A DNA stretch of 64,000 nt from a virus: IMG/VR virus record IMGVR_UViG_3300023109_003600, positions 1 to 64,000 of that record, one strand, 5' to 3'. Position 1 is the first letter of the stretch; every line of letters begins with the position of its first letter. Under the pieces are notes generated by a model that was not told where the DNA came from, did not search any database, and saw only the letters and a program-made list of their open reading frames with translations. This document shows, piece by piece, positions 51,198-61,150 of the stretch. Made by a program: the position numbers and the translations under genes.

Positions 51198-53749
51198 GTT
51201 TCCTTGAAGAATTTGAAACGTATAAGGATTTTTCTCCTCCTGGAGTACGTTTACCAGAAATCATAATTGAAAAAGAGAGGTATAAATCTTTAGGCCTCAA
51301 AGAAGACTCAACCAATTTTCAATTTTTAACTTCGCTATGCTCAGCAGGCTTAAAGGATAAAGCTATAGATGCCAATAAGCTTAAATTATATAAATCAAGA
51401 GTAAAAGAAGAATTACTGATCCTTAAAGATTTAGGTTTTATTGATTACATTTTACTCAACTGGGATGTTCTTAATTTTTGTCATGAAAATAACATACCTA
51501 CTGGCCCAGGAAGAGGTTCTGCAGCAGGTAGTTTGGTTTTATATTTAATAAGGGTGACGCAAGTAGACCCAATAAAAAACGATTTGTTTTTTGAGAGATT
51601 TGTATCAAAAAGCAGAGCCAAGAAAACAGAACACAATGGAATCACCTATTTAGACGGAAGTTTACTAGCGGATGTAGATAATGATATCGCATACGAACAT
51701 AGACAAACAGTAATAAAATATATCGAAGATAAATATCCAGCAAGGACATGTAAAATTCTAACACTAAATACCTTAAGCTCTAAATTATGCATCAAGGAGT
51801 GCGGCAAACTAGTAGGTAATTTAACAGAGCAAGAGGTGAACGAAGTAAGCGATTTTATTCCGAAGAAATTTGGCAAAGTTCTTTCAATAGATGAATCAAT
51901 AATTGAAAGTGAAAAATTTAAAGATTGGTCAGAAAAAAATAATAATATTATTAACATAGCTAGAAAAATTCACGGTTTAAACAAAAATACTGGAGTACAT
52001 CCGAGCGGAATAGCAATATCTCATCAAAAACTTGAAGACATTTGCCCGCTACAAACTAATTCAGAAGGAGATGTGATAAGCGGTTATGATATGAATTGGG
52101 TTGCAGAATTAACAGTTAAGTTTGATATTCTTGGTCTAAGAACCTTAAGTGTAATATATAACACTTGTAAGTCTTTAGGGATTGATCCCCAAGATATAAA
52201 AATGGATGATAAAATCATTTATGATAGCCTGCAAGACCTAATTTCCCCACAAGGAATTTTTCAAATTGAAGCTGACACAGACTTTAGAGTATGCAAAAAA
52301 ATCAAACCAAGGAATCTTGAAGAGCTTAGCGCAGTAATTGCCATAGCAAGACCTGGAGCTCTTGATTTTTTAAGTAATTATACTGACTACAGGGAGACAG
52401 GTCAAAGTCAAAGTGTGCATCAAGTATTTGATGAAATCCTTCAAACAACAGCAGGAATACCATTATATCAAGAACAGCTTATGCAAATGGCCGTTAAGAT
52501 CGGTTTTACCTTAGACGAATCAGAGCAGTTGCGTAGAATTGTAGGAAAGAAAAAGACAGAATTAATGCCAGAATGGCAAGAAAAAATTAAAGACAAGATA
52601 AAAGAAAATAACTTGCCCGCAGAAGCAGGAGAAATCCTATGGAGGGTGGCGGAAGATAGCGCGAATTATTCGTTTAACAAGTCGCACAGTATTAGTTATG
52701 CAATTCTTTCTGCTTGGACAGTTTACTTAAAATTCAAACATCCCCAAGAATTTTTCTTATCTTTACTTAAAATGAGCAAATTTGAACCATCCCCTCAAGA
52801 AGAGATTAATAAAGTTAGTCAAGAGCTATCTAGATTTAAATTCTCCCTACTACCTCCTGATTTAGCTAGGTCTGATATAGACTTTTCTATAGAAGGAAAA
52901 GATATTAGATTTGGATTAAACAGCATAAAAGGGGTTAGTGAAAAATCCTTTAAATCCTTACAAAGCTTTCGAGATTCAGACACCCCTAATAAATATGATA
53001 TTTTTATTGCGGCAAAACAGGCTGGTTTAAATATAGGAGCGCTCTCATCTTTAATTCAAGCAGGAGCCCTATCTAGCTATAAAACAAATAGATCGCTACT
53101 GGTCTTAGAGGCTCAATCATTTAATTTATTAACAGAGAGGGAGAAGCGAAACTTTTATCAATTAGGGGAAAAATATAACTTTAGTTTGCTCAAGGCTATT
53201 TCAGACGCTAAAAAAGGAATACTTATGTCGGACGATGGCAAGAGGCTAATGACAGAAAAGCGATTCCAGACATTTAAGAAAAAGTTTGATTCTTATAAAA
53301 AAATCTACGACAAGAATAAATCTCACGAGCTCTTTGCGAACTGGTACTTTGAGAATAAACTATTAGGTTATTCCTACACATGTAAGCTAAACTCAATATT
53401 TAAGTCTAACAATCACACCATAAAAGACACTCAAGATTTTAGAGAGCTAGCTAAAGATCAGTCAGATGTCTTTGTTGGAACTGTTTTTGATATTATTAAA
53501 AGAAAATCCAGAAACGGAAATGAATATATTAAAGCTACAATTATAGACGAAGTAGGATCAATGGATATTATGATGGGTGACTTTGGCAACAGAAAAGCTT
53601 TATCAAAATACACAGAATCAGGAGGAATTATTCCTCAAAAAGGAAATATTATAACAACAACAGGTAGAAAAGGAGACGACATTTTATTCGCAAACAATAT
53701 AAATATACTAGATCACAAAATTTATATGAAACTCAGTGATATAGATTAG
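51194..53749 (+). CDS. dnaE: DNA polymerase III alpha catalytic subunit lacking PHP domain
   Basis: GPGRGSAAGSLV, LFFERF, ADVDND, GVHPSG, KFDILGL, IFQ, RPG, YQEQLM, YSFNKSH, IRFGL..IKG, C-terminal OB; ATGA overlap at 51194. Confidence 0.95.
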   Translation: MSFLEEFETYKDFSPPGVRLPEIIIEKERYKSLGLKEDSTNFQFLTSLCSAGLKDKAIDANKLKLYKSRVKEELLILKDLGFIDYILLNWDVLNFCHENNIPTGPGRGSAAGSLVLYLIRVTQVDPIKNDLFFERFVSKSRAKKTEHNGITYLDGSLLADVDNDIAYEHRQTVIKYIEDKYPARTCKILTLNTLSSKLCIKECGKLVGNLTEQEVNEVSDFIPKKFGKVLSIDESIIESEKFKDWSEKNNNIINIARKIHGLNKNTGVHPSGIAISHQKLEDICPLQTNSEGDVISGYDMNWVAELTVKFDILGLRTLSVIYNTCKSLGIDPQDIKMDDKIIYDSLQDLISPQGIFQIEADTDFRVCKKIKPRNLEELSAVIAIARPGALDFLSNYTDYRETGQSQSVHQVFDEILQTTAGIPLYQEQLMQMAVKIGFTLDESEQLRRIVGKKKTELMPEWQEKIKDKIKENNLPAEAGEILWRVAEDSANYSFNKSHSISYAILSAWTVYLKFKHPQEFFLSLLKMSKFEPSPQEEINKVSQELSRFKFSLLPPDLARSDIDFSIEGKDIRFGLNSIKGVSEKSFKSLQSFRDSDTPNKYDIFIAAKQAGLNIGALSSLIQAGALSSYKTNRSLLVLEAQSFNLLTEREKRNFYQLGEKYNFSLLKAISDAKKGILMSDDGKRLMTEKRFQTFKKKFDSYKKIYDKNKSHELFANWYFENKLLGYSYTCKLNSIFKSNNHTIKDTQDFRELAKDQSDVFVGTVFDIIKRKSRNGNEYIKATIIDEVGSMDIMMGDFGNRKALSKYTESGGIIPQKGNIITTTGRKGDDILFANNINILDHKIYMKLSDID

Positions 53750-53760
53750 TGTATCTCATT

Positions 53761-56202
53761 ATGAATATGGAACTTAAACCCAACTTTACACCCCGAGCGC
53801 AAGAAGTTATTGCAGCTTCAAGAAAGCTAGCTTTAAACTATAATAAAAGAGTAGTTAACGAAGAACATTTATTTCTTGCTTTAGCGAAAGTAGATACTCA
53901 ATCGCTAGAAACTCTCTTTTCGGCATTTGATCTAGAAAGAAAAAATCTTATACTTTTTATATCCAAAAAGCTTAAAAAAAATACATCAGCGCCAACAAAA
54001 AAAAATTACTTCTCAGGAGAATTTAAATCAATCCTAGGGGGAGCGGTATTAGAAGCCGAAAAACACGAGCATGACTACATAGGAGTACAACATATACTAC
54101 TTTCAGTGTTCAAAAAACAAGACAATACAATTTGTCTTTTTTTTATAGAAAACGGAATCAGTGTCGAGTCATGCATATTAACAATTAGATCTCAATTTTT
54201 AATTAGTTCTTCTTCTGAAACTTTAGAGTCTAGCAGGCTATCCTCAGAATCAAATTATATCCCTAAAATAGAAGAAGAATATAAAGAAGGTCTAAAGTCT
54301 AATTTCTTTCATTGCATGAACACAAAAGCAATGCAAGGAAAATATGACGAAGTTATTGGTAGAGATCAAGAAATTAAAGATATTTCGGAAGTATTATGCA
54401 GGAGAAGTAAAAATAATCCTATACTCCTAGGGGATGCAGGAGTTGGAAAAACTGCAGTTGTAGAAGGTTTATCTCAAAAAATAGTAGAAGGTTCTGTAAC
54501 AGAATTTCTGTACAAAAAAAGAATTTATTCGCTAGATATGGCAAGCATGATTGCTGGCACAAAATATAGAGGGCAATTTGAAGAAAGGCTCAAAAATACT
54601 ATGGAAGAAATCCAGAAAGATAAAGACGCGATTATTTTTATAGACGAAATTCACTCAATTGTAGGCGCGGGAAGCGCTGAGGGAACTATGGACGCAGCAA
54701 ATATACTAAAACCAATGCTAGCAAGGGGCGATATCATGTGCATAGGAGCGACCACGCAAGAAGAATACAGAAAAACTATATTAAAAGATGGAGCATTAGA
54801 TAGAAGATTTCAACCGATCCATATTAAAGAGCCAACGCCTTCGGAATGTAAAGAAATATTAAACGGTCTCAAAGAAAAATATGAATCATTTCATCAAGTT
54901 AAGTATGAGGAAAATGTTGTAGAAAATTCCATCAAACTGTCCTCAAGGTTTATCTTAGATAGACAGCTTCCAGATAAAGCCATAGACTTACTAGATCAAG
55001 CTGGATCCAAAGCTAAAATTTCAGCATTTAAGCGTCCTGAAGAAGCGTTACAAATAGAAGAAGAGTTAAACGGTCTATACGAAATAGAGTCTACTTCTAG
55101 CGAACCTAATGTAATTATGAAGAAAAGAGATGCCTTAATGAAAAAATATCAAAATATAATTGAAGGTTGGGCAGAACAATCCACTTTAAAGAAAATTTTT
55201 GTAACAAATAAAGAATTATTTCAAGTAGTATCCCAAAAAACTGGGGTACCTATCGAAGATATCTCGAGCTCTGATACAGACAAATTTCTAAATTTAGAAA
55301 ACTCCTTAAAAAATGTCATCATCGGCCAAGACCCAGCAATTGAATCTATTTCAGAAACACTTATAAGGAACAAAGCAGGCTTAAGGGATGAACAAAAGCC
55401 TATAGGTAGTTTTTTATTTTTGGGTAGTAGCGGTGTAGGTAAAACTTACCTAGCAAAACAGGTGGCGAGTTTAGCGTTCGGAGACTCTAGTGATTTAATA
55501 CATATAGATATGTCAGAGTTTTCAGAGCAAGCTTCAACGGCTAAATTTGTAGGGGCATCGCCAGGATATATAGGTTTTGAGTCATCTGGAGCAATTACAG
55601 AAAGAGTAAGAAAGAAACCTTATTCAGTTTTATTGTTTGATGAGGTAGAAAAAGCTCACGAAGACGTGACGAACTTGCTACTACAGATACTAGAAGAAGG
55701 TAGGCTAACAGATAGTTCAGGAAGAACAATTTCCTTTAGAAATGTAATCGTAATCATAACAGGAAATATTGGGTCAAATTTCATGCAAAAGAATAATTCA
55801 GTAGGATTTATGCCTTCAAATTCGGAAGAAGACATTAATCAAAAGGTTATCGCAGAAGCAAGAAAAAAACTAAAACCAGAGCTCATCAATAGGATAGAGT
55901 CTATAATAAACTTCAAGAATTTCGAAGAAGCTCATTTGAAAAAAATCTCTGGACTGGAATTAGAAAAAAGCATGTCAAGAATAGAGGGCTCTATGGATAA
56001 AATTAATATAAAACCTTCGGTTTTTTCTTACATTGCTCAAAAAGCGCTAGAGCTCAATGATGGAGCGAGGCCAATCAAAAATATAATTAAAAAAGAAGTA
56101 GAGAACCCTTTGGCAAAATTAATTCTTCAAAACAAATCCTACGAGTCTAAAACACTAAGTATATCCGTAGTAAAAAATTGCATAAAAGTTTTATTGACTT
56201 AG
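53761..56202 (+). CDS. clpC: ClpC-type AAA+ unfoldase
   Basis: NFTPRAQ Clp N-domain; GDAGVGKT, IDEIH, LPDKAIDLLD; short middle coiled coil; GSSGVGKT, FDEVEKAH; VGF ClpP-docking loop. ATG 53767 is an alternative start. Confidence 0.92.
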   Translation: MNMELKPNFTPRAQEVIAASRKLALNYNKRVVNEEHLFLALAKVDTQSLETLFSAFDLERKNLILFISKKLKKNTSAPTKKNYFSGEFKSILGGAVLEAEKHEHDYIGVQHILLSVFKKQDNTICLFFIENGISVESCILTIRSQFLISSSSETLESSRLSSESNYIPKIEEEYKEGLKSNFFHCMNTKAMQGKYDEVIGRDQEIKDISEVLCRRSKNNPILLGDAGVGKTAVVEGLSQKIVEGSVTEFLYKKRIYSLDMASMIAGTKYRGQFEERLKNTMEEIQKDKDAIIFIDEIHSIVGAGSAEGTMDAANILKPMLARGDIMCIGATTQEEYRKTILKDGALDRRFQPIHIKEPTPSECKEILNGLKEKYESFHQVKYEENVVENSIKLSSRFILDRQLPDKAIDLLDQAGSKAKISAFKRPEEALQIEEELNGLYEIESTSSEPNVIMKKRDALMKKYQNIIEGWAEQSTLKKIFVTNKELFQVVSQKTGVPIEDISSSDTDKFLNLENSLKNVIIGQDPAIESISETLIRNKAGLRDEQKPIGSFLFLGSSGVGKTYLAKQVASLAFGDSSDLIHIDMSEFSEQASTAKFVGASPGYIGFESSGAITERVRKKPYSVLLFDEVEKAHEDVTNLLLQILEEGRLTDSSGRTISFRNVIVIITGNIGSNFMQKNNSVGFMPSNSEEDINQKVIAEARKKLKPELINRIESIINFKNFEEAHLKKISGLELEKSMSRIEGSMDKINIKPSVFSYIAQKALELNDGARPIKNIIKKEVENPLAKLILQNKSYESKTLSISVVKNCIKVLLT

Positions 56203-56222
56203 CGCGTATATAGGTGTACTAT
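56194..56222 (+). promoter_or_regulatory. Promoter of tmRNA (sigma70-type, overlapping a GTGTA motif)
   Basis: TTGACT-N17-TACTAT; GTGTA at 56214-56218. Confidence 0.6.
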
Positions 56223-56246
56223 ACTTATAGTTCTTTAACAGTTTAT

Positions 56247-56680
56247 GGGGGTGTTCTGGATTCGACTGAAGTTGAATTCTAACACCGCAAGAGGGAGATT
56301 GCACTACGGCTCCCCCATCAATGTGCAAAAGCTTTACATGGCTCTAAAAAACATGTTAGAGCTCTCGGCTTCAAAAATCGTATCGCTGCAAAGCGCTTCG
56401 GTTATAAGAGCCGTAAGCTCGCCCTAGCAGCATAGGCTGCTAGCCTCTTACTTCTTGACGCAGATACAGAGGTAAAGAGGTCATCAATCTGCAAAACAGA
56501 AAAAGTTTATCTGTATCAAAAACTGTACCGCTGAGTATTCGGAGGCCCTAGTTCTAGGTGAATAATTGAAACAGAGGGTTGGATGTTAATATCAAAACCA
56601 TAAAAAAAATTAACTATACTTGTAGACGTGTTAGCTTGAAGGCTATCAGGACGCGGGTTCAACTCCCGCCACCTCCACCA
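56247..56680 (+). ncRNA. ssrA: tmRNA (one-piece, 434 nt)
   Basis: 5' GGGGGTG pairs with CACCTCC-A-CCA with G3:U Ala determinant; GGATTCGAC D-like loop; T arm GCGGG-TTCAACT-CCCGC; pk1 GGGAG/TTGCAC...CTCCC/GTGCAA; tag ORF ending LALAA-TAG inside hairpin CTAGCAGC-ATAG-GCTGCTAG. Confidence 0.96.
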
Positions 56681-56721
56681 TTTTTTAATCATAAAACCAC
56701 AAACAAGTGGTATTATATAAT

Positions 56722-59004
56722 ATGAAAATATTATTTACCATAATTTTTATTGCTGCATCAAGCCTTGCAGGCGCAACCGTACCGACCCTCTTCTTCCAAG
56801 ACGGCAGATCCTTGGAAGCTAATATCATTGAAGCAAATTTCACACACGCCTTGATTGAAAGACGAAGAGATTTGCAGCGCTTTAGAATTGCGATCAACTC
56901 TTTAACAGAAGATAATCAAGCGTTTATAAAAAATAATTTTACACCCAGTCACCAAGCTTTACCCAAATTTAAAAAACCCTTAAACGAAAAAGATCTGCTT
57001 AGTCACTCTAGATATATAGATACTTTAATCGAAAGAAAACTTAGATCATATAATCTACAGCCAAACAAAGAAGCGGAAGACGAAGTTTTTCTGCGAAGAA
57101 CCTATCTTAAGATTATAGGCAGAACACCCTCCCTTTTAGAAGTTAAAGGGTTTGAAGAAAATAGAAGCAAAAACAAAAGGCGAGAGCTTATAGATTCTCT
57201 TTTAGGTAGCGAGGGTTATGTTAGCCATTGGTTTAATTTTTGGGCAGATATTTTAAGAATAAAAGATAGATTAAACAATAGAGTATCAGGCATACCTTAT
57301 AAAAATTATGTCAAGAAGTTTGTATCCAACAATCAACCTTATGACGAATGGGTAAGGGAATTGCTTTCTTCTTCTGGGCCTCTATGGAAAGAAGGTAGCG
57401 AAGGAGTAAGTTATTTTGCAAGAGATGTCAATATGCCTCTTGATAACATGTCAAACACTGTTAGAATTTTCTTAGGAACAAGTCTGGAATGCGCGCAATG
57501 CCATGATCATCCTTTTGACAGATGGACGCAAAAACAGTTTTATGAAATGGCTGCATTTACAAGCGGGTCAACAAATCTTAGGAGAAAAAACGTACCAAAC
57601 TTGGGCAAATTCAATCAATTAGTCCGTGAAGAACAGAAAAGGTTAGAGCAAGAAGGAGATCCAAATAAATCTAGAAGATTAAGGGATGCATCACGATCAG
57701 TGCAAGACATCCTACAAACAGGATTAGATAGTTTAGGTTCGGGAAAAATTAATTTACCGAAAGATTATCAATATGATAATGCGAAACCAAATGAGCAACT
57801 ATCAGGCAAAACTATTTTTGGATTAGATGTAGAGATTAAAACTAAAGCTCCAGAATCAGGCACTAGAGAAATCTACGCCAACTGGTTAGCTTCAGAATCT
57901 AACCCTAGATTTACAGCGGTAATAGTTAATAGACTATGGAAGGAAGTTTTTGGGTTGGCATTAATTGAGCCGCTAGATAATATGTTTGATGACACGATAC
58001 CTACAGATATAAAACTACAGCTACACCTCGAAAAAGTTATGATTGCCTTAAATTATGATTTAAAAGAATTTTTAAGAATATTATATAATACAAAAACTTT
58101 TCAGAGAGCTTCTGTTATTAGAGATGTTATACCGCGAGATGAAAAAGATACAGTCATGCCTATAGAAGTAAAGTGGATTATAGCGGGGCCAAATACTGAA
58201 AAGCAATCTCAAAATGCTGTACCATTCTTCTACCAAGGGCCTTTAGTTGAAAGGATGAGTGGCGAACAAATTTGGGACTCTTTAGTTAATTTAACTTTTA
58301 ATAATATAGATTCAAGAAAATTACAGCAGAACACAAAAGGATATGAAGACTTCGATAGATTCTCAAGCATGACTGGAGAAGAGCTTTTTGAAAATATTAT
58401 GAATAAACTCAACAACAAAGAAAATGCAGGGTCAAAAATAGCGACAAAATTTACAGAACCTATTAATACAGAATGCCCTATAAAACCAGGCAGGGAAATC
58501 GACCCAACCTTATTAGCCTTAAATGAAGATGGTCAGACAGTAGCGTTTTGTTGTGAATCTTGCCTAGACAAATTCAAATCTCAAAAGAAACAAAAAAAAG
58601 ATGACTACAAACAAAACTACACTAAGGACAGGAATTCAGTCAGGGCGTCCGAACTAAGCTCTCCAGCACCCATAGGGCACCTCATAAGGGAGTTTGGCGG
58701 CTCAGACAGAGAACAGATAGAAAACTCGCACAAACAAGCTTCAGCAACCCAAGTACTTAATTTATTAAATGGTTTTGTAGAAACAAGGTTATTAAAAAAC
58801 AAAAATTCAGAGATAGTAAAGCAAATCAAATCACAAAAAAATTTAGAAGACAAAATTAAAGTTGCGTTCAAATCAATCCTAAATAGAGAAGCTTCAATAT
58901 CAGAATTAAAATTATTTAAATCGTCACTTAAACAGGGTAAAGAGGTATATAAAGAGATAGTATGGACGCTGGTAAACAGTCACGAATTTATATTTATTAA
59001 ATAA
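56722..59004 (+). CDS. PVC-type DUF1549 (PSCyt2) / DUF1553 (PSD1) protein with signal peptide, SHD1-like N-domain and YHS-like insert
   Basis: FLRR.YL.IIGR.P, W..FWAD.LR, FLG..LECAQCHDHPFDRWTQ..FY..AAF, VNRLW...FG, LVNS.EF; CP...VAFCCESC..KF insert. Confidence 0.9.
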   Translation: MKILFTIIFIAASSLAGATVPTLFFQDGRSLEANIIEANFTHALIERRRDLQRFRIAINSLTEDNQAFIKNNFTPSHQALPKFKKPLNEKDLLSHSRYIDTLIERKLRSYNLQPNKEAEDEVFLRRTYLKIIGRTPSLLEVKGFEENRSKNKRRELIDSLLGSEGYVSHWFNFWADILRIKDRLNNRVSGIPYKNYVKKFVSNNQPYDEWVRELLSSSGPLWKEGSEGVSYFARDVNMPLDNMSNTVRIFLGTSLECAQCHDHPFDRWTQKQFYEMAAFTSGSTNLRRKNVPNLGKFNQLVREEQKRLEQEGDPNKSRRLRDASRSVQDILQTGLDSLGSGKINLPKDYQYDNAKPNEQLSGKTIFGLDVEIKTKAPESGTREIYANWLASESNPRFTAVIVNRLWKEVFGLALIEPLDNMFDDTIPTDIKLQLHLEKVMIALNYDLKEFLRILYNTKTFQRASVIRDVIPRDEKDTVMPIEVKWIIAGPNTEKQSQNAVPFFYQGPLVERMSGEQIWDSLVNLTFNNIDSRKLQQNTKGYEDFDRFSSMTGEELFENIMNKLNNKENAGSKIATKFTEPINTECPIKPGREIDPTLLALNEDGQTVAFCCESCLDKFKSQKKQKKDDYKQNYTKDRNSVRASELSSPAPIGHLIREFGGSDREQIENSHKQASATQVLNLLNGFVETRLLKNKNSEIVKQIKSQKNLEDKIKVAFKSILNREASISELKLFKSSLKQGKEVYKEIVWTLVNSHEFIFIK

Positions 59005-59016
59005 AAAAAAAGAAAA

Positions 59017-60300
59017 ATGAACATAAACGAATTAGGAAGAAGAGAATTTATAGCTCAAGCAGCAAAAAGTTGCTTGGGAGTAGGCTTGATGCCAATGGCA
59101 GGAGCTTATATACATAATAGCGTCGAGGCACTACAGCCAGGAGTTAGACCAGCAACAGCCCGTCATGTTATATATTTAAATATGGCAGGAGCAATGTCAC
59201 ACCTAGACACCTTTGGTCCAAAACCAGAAGTCCCAGATATTCAAGGTCCGACAAAATCAATCGCAACTACAGCAGATGGAATTCTATTATCGGAAAACTT
59301 ACCGAATACTGCGCAGTTTATGCATAAAGCTTCCGTCATTAAAACTATGGTATCTAGCCAGGGAGCGCACGAACAAGCTAGCTATCTCATGCACACTAGC
59401 TATCTCAAGAGAGGTACAATTGTTCATCCTACTTTTGGAAGTTGGGTTTCAAAGCTGGCAGGCTCAATCAATACTACCGTACCTGCAAATATTAAAATTG
59501 GAGGTGGAGGAGGAGGAGCTGGTTTTCTTGAATCAAAATATGGTGCTCTGCCAATAAATAATCCTCGCTCTGGTTTGGCTAATAGTAAAATGGCTTCTTA
59601 TTTAGATTTAGAAACCTTTCAAGGCAGAATTTCTTTGGCAGAGAAATTAAATCAAAACTTTTCTACAGATTTTCAATTAAAACAAGTAAGAGCTTATTCT
59701 GATTTATACAGGGATGCAGTTAAGCTAATGAATAGCGATGACTTAAATGCTTTTGATATAACTAAAGAGTCGCAGCAAACAAGCGAACTTTATGGTGCTA
59801 CTAATTTTGGGCAAGGTTGCCTTTTAGCAAGAAGGTTAGTTGAAAATGGCGTTCGTTACGTTGAAGTTACAAGAGGTGGATGGGATACGCATGATAATAA
59901 CTTTGAAAGAGTTGCGGCAAATTGCGCGGATATTGATCAAGCTTTAAGCGGTTTGCTTTACGATTTAGATAGACGAGGACTTTTAAGCGAAACGCTTGTA
60001 GTGTTGACTTCTGAATTTGGAAGGACTCCAAACATCAACGGTAGAGACGGAAGAGATCATTGGCCATATTGCTTTACGGCTTTTATGGCGGGAGGAGGAA
60101 TCAAAGAAGGCTTCTCTTACGGAGAAAGTGACAAGGCAGGTCGAAGCCCAGTGGAAGGAAAAGGCATTAAGCCAGAAGACTTAAATGCTACTATAGCATA
60201 CGCCTTAGGGTTGTCAATAAATAGTCAGCAGTACTCCCCCTCAGGAAGACCTTTTACGATAGCGAATAAGGGAGAACCTTTACTTGACGTTATTTCTTAA
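59017..60300 (+). CDS. DUF1501 family protein with Tat signal
   Basis: GRREFI twin-Arg, LNMAGAMSHLDTF, FGQGCLLARRLVE.GVRYV, GGWDTH, SEFGRTP, GRDHWP, AGGGI. Confidence 0.92.
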   Translation: MNINELGRREFIAQAAKSCLGVGLMPMAGAYIHNSVEALQPGVRPATARHVIYLNMAGAMSHLDTFGPKPEVPDIQGPTKSIATTADGILLSENLPNTAQFMHKASVIKTMVSSQGAHEQASYLMHTSYLKRGTIVHPTFGSWVSKLAGSINTTVPANIKIGGGGGGAGFLESKYGALPINNPRSGLANSKMASYLDLETFQGRISLAEKLNQNFSTDFQLKQVRAYSDLYRDAVKLMNSDDLNAFDITKESQQTSELYGATNFGQGCLLARRLVENGVRYVEVTRGGWDTHDNNFERVAANCADIDQALSGLLYDLDRRGLLSETLVVLTSEFGRTPNINGRDGRDHWPYCFTAFMAGGGIKEGFSYGESDKAGRSPVEGKGIKPEDLNATIAYALGLSINSQQYSPSGRPFTIANKGEPLLDVIS

Positions 60301-60311
60301 CTTATAATTAT

Positions 60312-61118
60312 TCATTCTGGGCGCTTACCCAAAGGTTTCCCATCTTGACCAATTTGCCCATCTCTAATTTTTGTAGCAGAGACTTCTTGCAATTCTTTAC
60401 TTAGTTCCAATTGTTCGATATTGTAACCAACACCTCTTCCATAAAATACGTCCATAATATTTGGAAGCTCTACGACTTTAATTTTATTTCCAAACTCGAT
60501 ACAAGCAGAATGTATCTCTGCTTTTACCTTTTCAAAATTGTAGGGATTACTATCATTAATTCCACCAACATCTCTTAATGCTATGCAACACTGACCTGTT
60601 CTTTTTATGGCTTCGGCAACAAGACTCTTGTGTCCAATGTGGAATGGTTGGTATCTACCTATTAGTAGTGCGGTAGGCGCCTGATTATCCCACACTTCGC
60701 TTTCGTTTAATTTTTCAATAACTTTATCGACCCACTCTTCTGGAGTTCCATCAGTAAGTCTTACATCATAATTCATAGGACTTTCAAACAATTTGTTCGT
60801 ATCTTCGTATCTACCCTCCAAGATTCTATCTACCCAAATTACAAAATCTGCATTAAAAGATTCTCTTGTTTTTTGAGTTGGGCAGATAAAGTCTGCGATA
60901 ACATAACACCCTCCCATTTTCGCCCAATCACAAAGTTTGCCCATTCTCTTGGCATGAGACAATCTATCTTCAGGAGAAAAACCAAGTTCAGAATATATAT
61001 CTTGCCTAACAGCATCAGCATTAAACCATGCAGCTTGCAATTTTGGAACGAGCTTTTCAGCTAAAGTTGTCTTGCCAGAACCTGGCAGACCCATAATTAA
61101 TATTTTTCTTTTCGTCAT
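60312..61118 (-). CDS. APS-kinase (CysC)-like domain fused to HIGH-motif nucleotidyltransferase
   Basis: IMGLPGSGKTTLA, NADAVR, LGFSPEDR, ADFICP; IGRYQPFHIGH, SATKIR; ATG 61118 lies 10 nt after GTGTA. Confidence 0.85.
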   Translation of the reverse strand: MTKRKILIMGLPGSGKTTLAEKLVPKLQAAWFNADAVRQDIYSELGFSPEDRLSHAKRMGKLCDWAKMGGCYVIADFICPTQKTRESFNADFVIWVDRILEGRYEDTNKLFESPMNYDVRLTDGTPEEWVDKVIEKLNESEVWDNQAPTALLIGRYQPFHIGHKSLVAEAIKRTGQCCIALRDVGGINDSNPYNFEKVKAEIHSACIEFGNKIKVVELPNIMDVFYGRGVGYNIEQLELSKELQEVSATKIRDGQIGQDGKPLGKRPE

Positions 61119-61150
61119 AACCCTATTATACACTTTTATTTTTTTTATCC

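Follow-up and report, generated by a model that had tools for sequence, protein, structure and literature searches.

Background

The peptide tags encoded by transfer-messenger RNAs (tmRNAs) are short degrons, the part upstream of whose last residues is thought to serve host adaptors, and red-lineage plastids also encode clpC beside the tmRNA gene, ssrA. Here we describe a viral tmRNA gene with a long polycationic tag, which lies downstream of a gene for a ClpC-type unfoldase in a 64,000-nucleotide stretch of DNA (hereafter the window), the first 64 kb of IMG/VR virus record IMGVR_UViG_3300023109_003600. Among the closest described systems, the tmRNA of E. coli encodes the tag ANDENYALAA, and its U85 and A86, equivalent to the -5 and -4 bases, set the frame (PMC2481249). 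A survey of 2005 lists a glycine resume codon in 30 sequences and mRNA-like domains (MLDs) of 48-126 nt, those of algal plastids reaching 126 nt in the Odontella sinensis chloroplast (PMC1168896). Phage tmRNAs have been reported from the mycobacteriophage Bxz1 group and Bacillus phage G (PMC4131195), from Melnitz and the pelagimyophages (PMC9004378) and from huge phages (PMC7162821), and a long ssrA tag is read by Lon in Mycoplasma and Mesoplasma (Gur and Sauer 2008, via PMC8138137). Both phage tmRNAs and long tags, the latter from Mycoplasma and plastid MLDs, are therefore already known. As for the unfoldases, IGF/IGL loops dock them on ClpP, and assembly of ClpC requires an adaptor or a substrate (PMC8138137).

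The locus in the window very probably encodes a real tagging tmRNA with a long basic tag. We find that this tag is selected as a peptide, that it belongs to a family of viral tmRNAs which carry tags of widely different length and charge on one scaffold, and that the phages concerned share a ClpC-type unfoldase.

A one-piece viral tmRNA with a selected basic tag

The window matches Rfam family RF00023 on the plus strand at 56247-56680 over the full model (1-374 of 374; 102.6 bits against a gathering score of 47, E 5.9e-39), this being the sole RNA family that Rfam detects there, and on sequence-level tests the predicted full-length, one-piece tmRNA is confirmed as a member of RF00023. The Rfam alignment sets the model's resume codon on GGC 56340-56342, and translation of 56340-56435 yields GSKKHVRALGFKNRIAAKRFGYKSRKLALAA and a stop, that is 31 residues with six Lys, four Arg, one His and no Asp or Glu (net +10), in agreement with a preliminary description of the locus made from its letters alone. 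That description had named ARAGORN and Infernal with RF00023 as checks, and the two differ, for ARAGORN misses the window's copy.

The basic tag is under purifying selection at the level of the peptide. Across nine distinct 31-codon tags, the ratio of nonsynonymous to synonymous polymorphism (pN/pS) amounts to 0.19 in the frame of the tag but to 1.13 and 2.27 once the frame is shifted, which is the codon-level conservation among related phage tmRNAs that had been proposed for examination; in five basic-tag sequences the variable sites are distributed 8/4/18 over codon positions 1/2/3, and 11 of the 33 codon columns vary only synonymously. By segment the ratio is 0.13 for codons 8-15, 0.15 for codons 16-25 and 0.06 for codons 26-31, so that translation from codon 8 onward is strongly supported. 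The +1 frame, with GCU as its first codon, is open too and shows no comparable selection signal.

The gene and its flanks comprise the following features:
56194-56222 (+): promoter-like site TTGACT-17 nt-TACTAT (consensus scan, 9 of 12 matches; weak)
56230-56246 (+): conserved 5' leader abutting the mature 5' end, GTTCTTTaAaAnTTTAT (consensus of 49 members, at least 80% in most columns)
56247-56680 (+): one-piece tmRNA gene, 434 nt (RF00023 full model; 70-97% identity to 48 other distinct viral tmRNAs)
56247-56253 (+): 5' strand of the acceptor stem, GGGGGUG, pairing with CACCUCC at 56670-56676 and including G3:U (sequence and Rfam alignment)
56293-56327 (+): pseudoknot 1 (PK1), two 5-bp helices (100% of cells paired in 11 sequences)
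56335-56339 (+): frame-setting context UACAU, which places U at -5 and A at -4 (45 of 49 family members have UAYAU in front of the tag)
56340-56432 (+): tag frame of 31 codons, GSKKHVRALGFKNRIAAKRFGYKSRKLALAA (translation, charge count, codon-level selection)
56341-56347/56356-56362 (+): 7-bp hairpin GCTCTAA/TTAGAGC (complete in 1 of 11 sequences, no covariation)
56424-56443 (+): helix 5, CUAGCAGC-AUAG-GCUGCUAG, enclosing the stop (Rfam alignment and sequence)
56433-56435 (+): UAG stop in the helix-5 loop (Rfam alignment and translation)
56649-56680 (+): T-arm, 3' acceptor strand and encoded CCA (Rfam alignment; near-invariant across the family)
56681-56686 (+): T-run right after the CCA (sequence; TTTT follows CCA in the family consensus)

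In an alignment of the 11 basic-clade sequences, the whole tmRNA structure scores better than all 500 column shuffles and all slid controls. Covariation was examined for PK1, in which all cells of the ten pairs are paired and three pairs are changed on both sides, and for helix 5, in which 76% of cells are paired and two pairs are changed on both sides. Rfam aligns the region of pseudoknots 2-4 with several non-canonical pairs and a 33-nt insertion. An insertion of 20-35 nt in the distal pseudoknot region (56549-56581; alignment columns ~299-334), found in the window and some relatives and not in the 398-nt members, brings the window RNA to 434 nt. The 3' end ACCA is encoded in the gene next to a T-arm that Rfam aligns, and the G3:U pair of the acceptor stem is the alanine identity element.

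The 3' strand of PK1 ends at position 81 of the tmRNA and GGC begins at position 94, a spacing of 12 nt rather than the 11 nt first counted; the U and A claimed at -5 and -4 are there, the bases before GGC being UACAU. The 7-bp hairpin at the start of the tag, which had also been pointed out, is present in the window and complete there only. Of its base pairs, one occurs in a single relative out of 11 and another in six; compensatory changes are absent, and we take the hairpin to be incidental.

The body of the tag does not have the amphipathic character first attributed to it, since its helical hydrophobic moment is equalled by 1112 of 2000 shuffles. An internal tandem duplication was considered as the origin of the 31-residue tag on account of GFK[NS]R occurring twice, 11 residues apart; it is unsupported, the best 24-nt self-match (offset 33) being reached by 753 of 5000 codon shuffles. 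Upstream of the gene, the conserved 17-nt leader may act in processing or as a leader element. Sites of the TTGACT/TACTAT type show no enrichment over shuffles, and a TGTAxxCTAT-like element lies at a similar distance in the relatives.

A viral tmRNA family with three classes of tag

The first 20 nt of the gene retrieved 10 viral contigs, nine of them with an Rfam tmRNA and seven with the scaffold of the window. A conserved-scaffold pattern gave 68 viral stretches. Over these and the earlier loci, a profile made from the alignment scored 76 hits, including 70 of full length; after identical sequences are merged, 49 distinct viral tmRNAs remain, all sharing one scaffold. Directly 5' of a GGN codon, UAYAU stands in 45 of the 49 and a related sequence in the remaining four. 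Unrelated contigs were also drawn in by the generic 20-nt 5' end, among them one with a group I intron beside a tRNA (L009:10748-10987) and one in which a Listeria rli28 sRNA neighbours a Firmicute-type tmRNA of the ordinary kind (L005:6867-7054).

The common tag of the family, present in 29 of the 49 members, is 19-21 residues long with a net charge of -1 to +7 (for example GNKSRIKAYSPQSESLALAA, GNKNRVKAFGLKAKKLALAA and GKNLSRVESFAPKSEVFALAA). Eleven members, including the window, its 97%-identical relative L019 and one 33-residue variant, have tags of 31-33 residues with net +10 to +12. The remaining nine tags (L002, L006, L008, L061, L065, L073, L093, L096 and L101) are acidic: they have 34-40 residues, a net charge of -9 to -11 (for example GEGYDSIEELLEAAREEYDNLVQFEQAEELEMVA) and, in most cases, MVA at the end in place of LAA. 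These acidic tags are under purifying selection too (pN/pS 0.22), and the acidic tag is a significant candidate for an amphipathic helix (21 of 2000 shuffles).

Long basic and short tags have in common their first dozen residues (G-[NKA]-K-x-R-[VI]-[KR]-A...) and their last five (LALAA), so that the 31-residue tag is best seen as a family trait taken to its long extreme, not as a one-off. The ALAA degron noted at the outset is indeed retained, the last four residues of the 40 non-acidic tags being A in 40, L in 37, A in 39 and A in 40. The further claim that the adaptor-binding part of the tag had been replaced holds insofar as the body is long, basic, selected and unlike the 8-11-residue bacterial tags; it is too simple because the common tag of the family is a mildly basic one of 19-21 residues, of which the window's tag is the extended form.

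The MLD behaves as a module, varying far more than the scaffold. When a tree is built from the scaffold and the tag is masked, six changes are required to place the three classes, against a minimum of two, and the well-supported branches are compatible with single origins of the classes. Five of the records with short-tag members (G014-G018; 194-214 kb) are rated 100% complete, and the long-tag records reach 100-122 kb at 73-90% completeness. At default settings ARAGORN detects 26 of the 49 family tmRNAs and misses 23, and surveys of phage tmRNAs based on it must therefore under-count. It also reports a wrong-frame tag in several short-tag members and begins the acidic tags at a downstream Ala codon, giving 21 residues.

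A ClpC-type unfoldase as a core gene of the phage group

The gene that ends 45 nt before the start of the tmRNA is:
53749-56202 (+): ClpC-type double-ring AAA+ unfoldase, 817 aa, with Clp_N domain, short middle domain and VGF loop (Pfam, PDB match)

Its Pfam domains are AAA_2, AAA, AAA_lid_9, ClpB_D2-small and Clp_N. The best PDB match is B. subtilis ClpC, aligned in a single stretch (12-803, 629 bits), whereas structures of ClpB/Hsp104 align in two stretches, which points to a short ClpC-like middle domain and not to the long coiled coil of ClpB. The VGF aligns with the VGF of ClpC at the ClpP-docking position in D2, and [VILFM]GF is found in 14 of 14 phage homologues. Sequence identity to phage and Firmicute ClpC-like matches is ~38-39%. 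Since the scores fall below the NCBIfam equivalog cut-offs (743.5 against 1232 for ClpB, 697 against 993 for ClpA; no ClpC model ranked), we call the protein ClpC-type and not an orthologue.

A ClpC-type unfoldase of 800-820 residues is present in 14 of 18 family records, including all five complete genomes, the four records without it being 24-79% complete; it is a core gene of this phage group. It lies at most 2.8 kb upstream of the tmRNA on the same strand in 10 of the 49 loci, and at most 400 nt upstream in six, with all three tag classes represented. A separate pattern search of viral contigs with ClpC gave 32 matches of which none was confirmed, a limit of that method given that 13 homologues were found by another search.

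The usual partners of trans-translation and of ClpC are missing from the phage records that we searched. SmpB was found in none of 10, five of them complete; MecA, ClpS and SspB each in none of eight; a McsB-type kinase in none of five. ClpP was found in none of the five complete genomes, and two of five other records gave sub-threshold matches only, to ORFs of ~245 residues. The TEH-type motifs of the ClpC N-domain are presumably phospho-arginine sites, and in the alignment with ClpC the Glu is kept in only one of the two. With this, and with no McsB-type kinase in the five records, the Arg-phosphorylation sites once suggested for the tag find no support. The suggestion that the tag might recruit another protease or adaptor has gained a concrete candidate in the unfoldase encoded 45 nt upstream.

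Folding the ClpC N-domain (residues 1-150) together with the tag gave a complex score of 0.00 against a mark of 0.32, which is evidence neither way. Two further proteins recur as neighbours of the tmRNA, one of ~107 residues at 19 loci, often 19-226 nt upstream (for example L063:6967-7296), and a nucleoside 2-deoxyribosyltransferase-like one of ~179 residues at 17 loci (for example L003:2983-3546). Neither resembles a known adaptor.

Genome context and host

The viral record has 121,649 bp with 33.5% G+C and a CheckV completeness of 90%. Its gene content fits a large lytic phage (DnaB-like helicase, UvsX-like recombinase, ribonucleotide reductase, DnaE, clamp loader, RIIA/RIIB), and the full record contains no tRNA gene and no second tmRNA. 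A blastn search of the tmRNA against INPHARED (50,697 records) gave no match, and tblastn of DnaE and ClpC gave only distant matches of at most 39% identity; from these results we conclude that the phage has no cultured relative.

Directly 3' of the tmRNA (56707-60300, +) lie genes for a DUF1549/DUF1553 (PSCyt2/PSD1) protein of 765 residues and a DUF1501 protein of 427 residues (360 bits). Such a pair is typical of cellular genomes, and it may represent auxiliary genes and a clue to the host; the look-alikes of the DUF1501 gene in the Atlas are mostly from Planctomycetota. On the opposite strand (60312-61133, -) follows a 273-residue ORF with an APS-kinase-like P-loop at its N-terminus and a weak cytidylyltransferase-like match.

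A back-translated alignment of the tags was used to scan one genome for each of 185,579 species. No cellular tmRNA with such a tag was found among these species representatives; 16 stretches matched and two were confirmed, neither of them a cellular tmRNA. The first is on a 47-kb contig of a metagenome-assembled genome (MAG) titled Halobacteriovorax. This contig contains a family tmRNA and ~20 ORFs in common with the phage, and the rest of it encodes giant proteins with no Pfam match save one Laminin_G_3 domain (six tested), so that it is, in our view, a phage contig placed in the bin rather than the junction of a prophage. The second, L018 in a Lysobacterales MAG, is an 11-residue identity that we treat as chance, as the pattern forced 10 of the residues, the site is intergenic and it contains no Rfam tmRNA at E up to 1.

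On a contig of more than 1 Mb the Halobacteriovorax-titled MAG has its own 366-nt tmRNA with the 11-residue tag ANNDFAPAMAA, and the same type occurs in three of three congeners; the window tmRNA is only 44-49% identical to these genus-type bacterial tmRNAs. An equally long and basic host tag, raised early on as a reason for doubt, was thus seen neither in the scan nor in this candidate host lineage. In a sample of Bdellovibrionota, the one phylum that supplies our background of bacterial tags, 54 of 61 genomes have a tmRNA, and 27 ARAGORN tags from 30 loci have 8-11 residues and net charges of -2 to +2. The Halobacteriovorax-titled MAG (G010; 4.9 Mb) holds three tmRNAs in all, a genus-type one (C14), a phage-type one on 47 kb (C24) and one with a 13-residue tag (C25), which suggests that this bin mixes more than one genome.

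Representation in RNA libraries

Exact copies of the sequence are present in seawater metatranscriptomes. At least 16 metatranscriptomic runs contain words of the stretch, and contigs from four runs, belonging to four studies, were compared with it, small word shares in runs X3 and X5-X20 being left aside as evidence of habitat. In run X1 a 460-nt contig is identical to 56255-56678, and the overhang at each of its ends resembles sequencing adapter. Run X2 gives a 365-nt contig equal to 56256-56620 with one difference, X4 a 199-nt contig with none, and X5 several close variants of the tmRNA; the X1, X2 and X4 contigs come from three studies. No contig in the four runs covers 55900-56232 (the 3' end of the ClpC gene) or 56714-56750, which has no bearing on transcription there, and 56759-57000 is covered in X1 only, by a contig of depth 5.6. 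We take these contigs as a good hint, short of proof, of a discrete and abundant RNA species in seawater.

Proposed mechanism and alternatives

Our overall reading is that of a working phage tmRNA whose basic body redirects tagged proteins, most likely to the phage ClpC, and we give it about an even chance. The data show the identity of the gene, its reading frame, the selection on the peptide, the distribution of the family, the occurrence in RNA libraries and the company of ClpC. From charging through tagging to degradation, and above all in the link to ClpC, the steps of the mechanism are ones that we infer. After infection, the tmRNA would be transcribed from its own promoter and processed to ~434 nt. 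Host AlaRS would charge it with alanine by way of the G3:U pair and, because the phage encodes no SmpB, host SmpB and EF-Tu would bring it to stalled ribosomes, which should be plentiful while a lytic phage degrades the host mRNA. Translation would resume at GGC 56340, set by UACAU 12 nt after PK1, and stop at the UAG in the helix-5 loop, so that rescued chains would end in Ala plus GSKKHVRALGFKNRIAAKRFGYKSRKLALAA. The LALAA end is the canonical degron of the ClpP pathway, by which tagged products would be destroyed.

The 25-residue polycationic body, as a selected and lineage-specific extension of the usual 19-21-residue tag, would change who recognises the tagged proteins. Being selected, it must be read by something, and that it selects a protease or an adaptor is plausible at somewhat less than an even chance. 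The most economical reader would be an adaptor-less phage ClpC docked on host ClpP, to which the body would steer products, off the host's tag-adaptor logic, with the long, disordered, charged tail as an engagement or activating segment for ClpC; that this ClpC is indeed the reader is a tentative proposal, and we rather doubt it. A bolder version, which we hold a shade more doubtful, pictures a widespread lineage of large marine phages with its own branch of trans-translation, in which one scaffold carries interchangeable charged cassettes (+12 to -11, 31-40 residues) that serve as host-orthogonal degrons read by an adaptor-less ClpC on host ClpP. The phage would thereby decide the fate of every polypeptide from ribosomes stalled in host shut-off.

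Several observations weigh against this reading or its parts. The unfoldase accompanies short, basic and acidic tags alike, and its presence therefore does not explain the basic extension specifically; moreover, of the 31 loci whose upstream flank is long enough, only 4 have it directly next to the tmRNA. We considered and rejected the idea that the ClpC N-domain and the tag had co-evolved electrostatically, as the net charges of the domain show no pattern (+4, +3, +7, -7 and -10 with basic tags; +4, -1, -1 and -3 with acidic tags; +2, -1, -6, -6 and -12 with short tags). Codons 1-7 of the tag have a pN/pS of 0.96, that is, no purifying selection inside the basic clade. The metatranscriptomic contigs prove neither transcription nor strand nor ends, for DNA can contaminate RNA libraries. 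Finally, a single phage contig that was binned into a MAG is the whole of the link to a host, the neighbouring DUF1501 gene suggests Planctomycetota instead, and a true host outside the 185,579 representatives could carry a similar tag.

The alternative that survives best, which we nevertheless consider unlikely, is a gain of function in which the tag confers a new property on host fragments, making of them, for example, decoys that saturate or inhibit ClpXP or Lon, or molecules that bind nucleic acid, ribosomes or membranes, with the acidic tag as the converse. Opposite extremes of charge (+12 to -11) on near-identical scaffolds, both selected at pN/pS 0.19 and 0.22, are in its favor, and the amphipathic-helix candidate of the acidic tag (reached by 21 of 2000 shuffles) looks like a binding module rather than a mere spacer; moreover, some acidic tags end in MVA or PMAA and not in LAA. 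However, the A-L-A-A end is kept in essentially all of the 40 non-acidic tags, which argues that degradation matters, the basic tag lacks an amphipathic pattern, and we identified no partner for such a function.

Less probable again is that the extra tmRNA serves rescue only, freeing ribosomes as host mRNA decays, the tag being irrelevant drift on a long MLD. The known need of a phage for tmRNA is for rescue and not for the tag (PMC2481249), phage tmRNAs have already been proposed to "maintain the hijacked machinery" (PMC9004378), and the tag classes are highly diverse within one scaffold family. Drift is difficult to reconcile with the strong purifying selection that acts on the peptide and shows in no frame but that of the tag, or with the retention of 31-33 residues at +10 to +12 by 11 distinct tmRNAs.

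We consider it very improbable that the tag is shorter, with translation resuming at a downstream in-frame codon and the first residues outside the tag. Such a start would suit the value of 0.96 for codons 1-7 and the preference of ARAGORN for the downstream Ala codon (21 residues) in the acidic clade. Because of that value, the start at GGC rests on other evidence: the UAYAU-GGN context, kept across the tag classes and 12 nt after PK1; the Rfam alignment, which agrees; the indels in L003 and L027, which are in frame; codons 1-9 over 27 family tags, where pN/pS is 0.47 in frame against 1.10 and 1.33; and ARAGORN itself, which gives the GGC start and the identical tag for 7 of the 11 basic-clade tmRNAs. 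A resume codon far downstream had been named beforehand as a threat to the claim of a long tag; we found no resume context downstream of GGC, and 24 residues with net +8 would remain even if the tag began at codon 8.

The least probable explanation is that the phage picked up an ordinary host tmRNA gene with its tag, for although phage tmRNAs often resemble those of the host lineage (PMC9004378), the scanned species representatives contain no cellular tmRNA with this tag, the MAG and its three congeners have a normal tmRNA with an 11-residue tag, the scaffold is 44-49% identical to theirs, and the family resides on 68 viral contigs.

Comparison with known systems

Like the bacterial one-piece tmRNAs, the window tmRNA has the G3:U pair and CCA, PK1, U and A at -5/-4, a stop in the loop of helix 5, predicted downstream pseudoknots and a C-terminal ALAA. 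It differs from them in a tag of 31 against ~10 residues, in a net charge of +10 where theirs are acidic or neutral, and in being encoded by a phage without SmpB. Its resume codon is Gly, which is unremarkable given the 30 sequences of the 2005 survey (PMC1168896). At 434 nt it exceeds the 425-nt maximum given in that survey.

With the earlier phage tmRNAs it shares a phage-borne ssrA, for which roles in sustaining translation or in tagging host proteins have been proposed. Among the descriptions of them consulted, none mentions a long charged tag. Those of the Melnitz type are two-piece (PMC9004378), and huge phages carry SmpB as well (PMC7162821), whereas the tmRNA of the window phage is one-piece and comes without SmpB. 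Those earlier surveys of phage tmRNAs relied on ARAGORN, which misses 23 of the 49 members here.

The unfoldase resembles B. subtilis ClpC/MecB (PDB 3J3S and others) in its end-to-end alignment, two AAA+ rings, N-domain, short middle domain and VGF; unlike the situation of B. subtilis ClpC, no MecA, McsB, ClpS or ClpP was found in the phage records searched. Full-text searches of the literature recovered no description of a polycationic tmRNA tag or of this phage family, and no single scaffold with cassettes ranging from +12 to -11, although supplementary tables, which lie outside such searches, might list such tags. Nor did these searches turn up any lineage in which a tmRNA is consistently accompanied by a phage ClpC while ClpP and SmpB are missing.

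The plastid tmRNAs demonstrate that an MLD of ~100 nt or more is compatible with function, while being organellar and having a scaffold unrelated to that of the phage tmRNA. The best precedent for a long tag together with a changed protease is the Mycoplasma case. There the switch follows the loss of ClpXP in a reduced cell, whereas here a virus brings a ClpC-type unfoldase of its own; the two kinds of tag have no sequence relationship, and the charge bias is new.

The selection of a long charged tag, and of an equally long negative one on the same RNA in relatives, implies that the tag body has a specific use for the phage. Should tag and unfoldase cooperate, this would be the first viral take-over of the axis from trans-translation to proteolysis, and it would provide a natural pair of orthogonal degron-unfoldase modules, akin to the tool made of the Mesoplasma tag and Lon.

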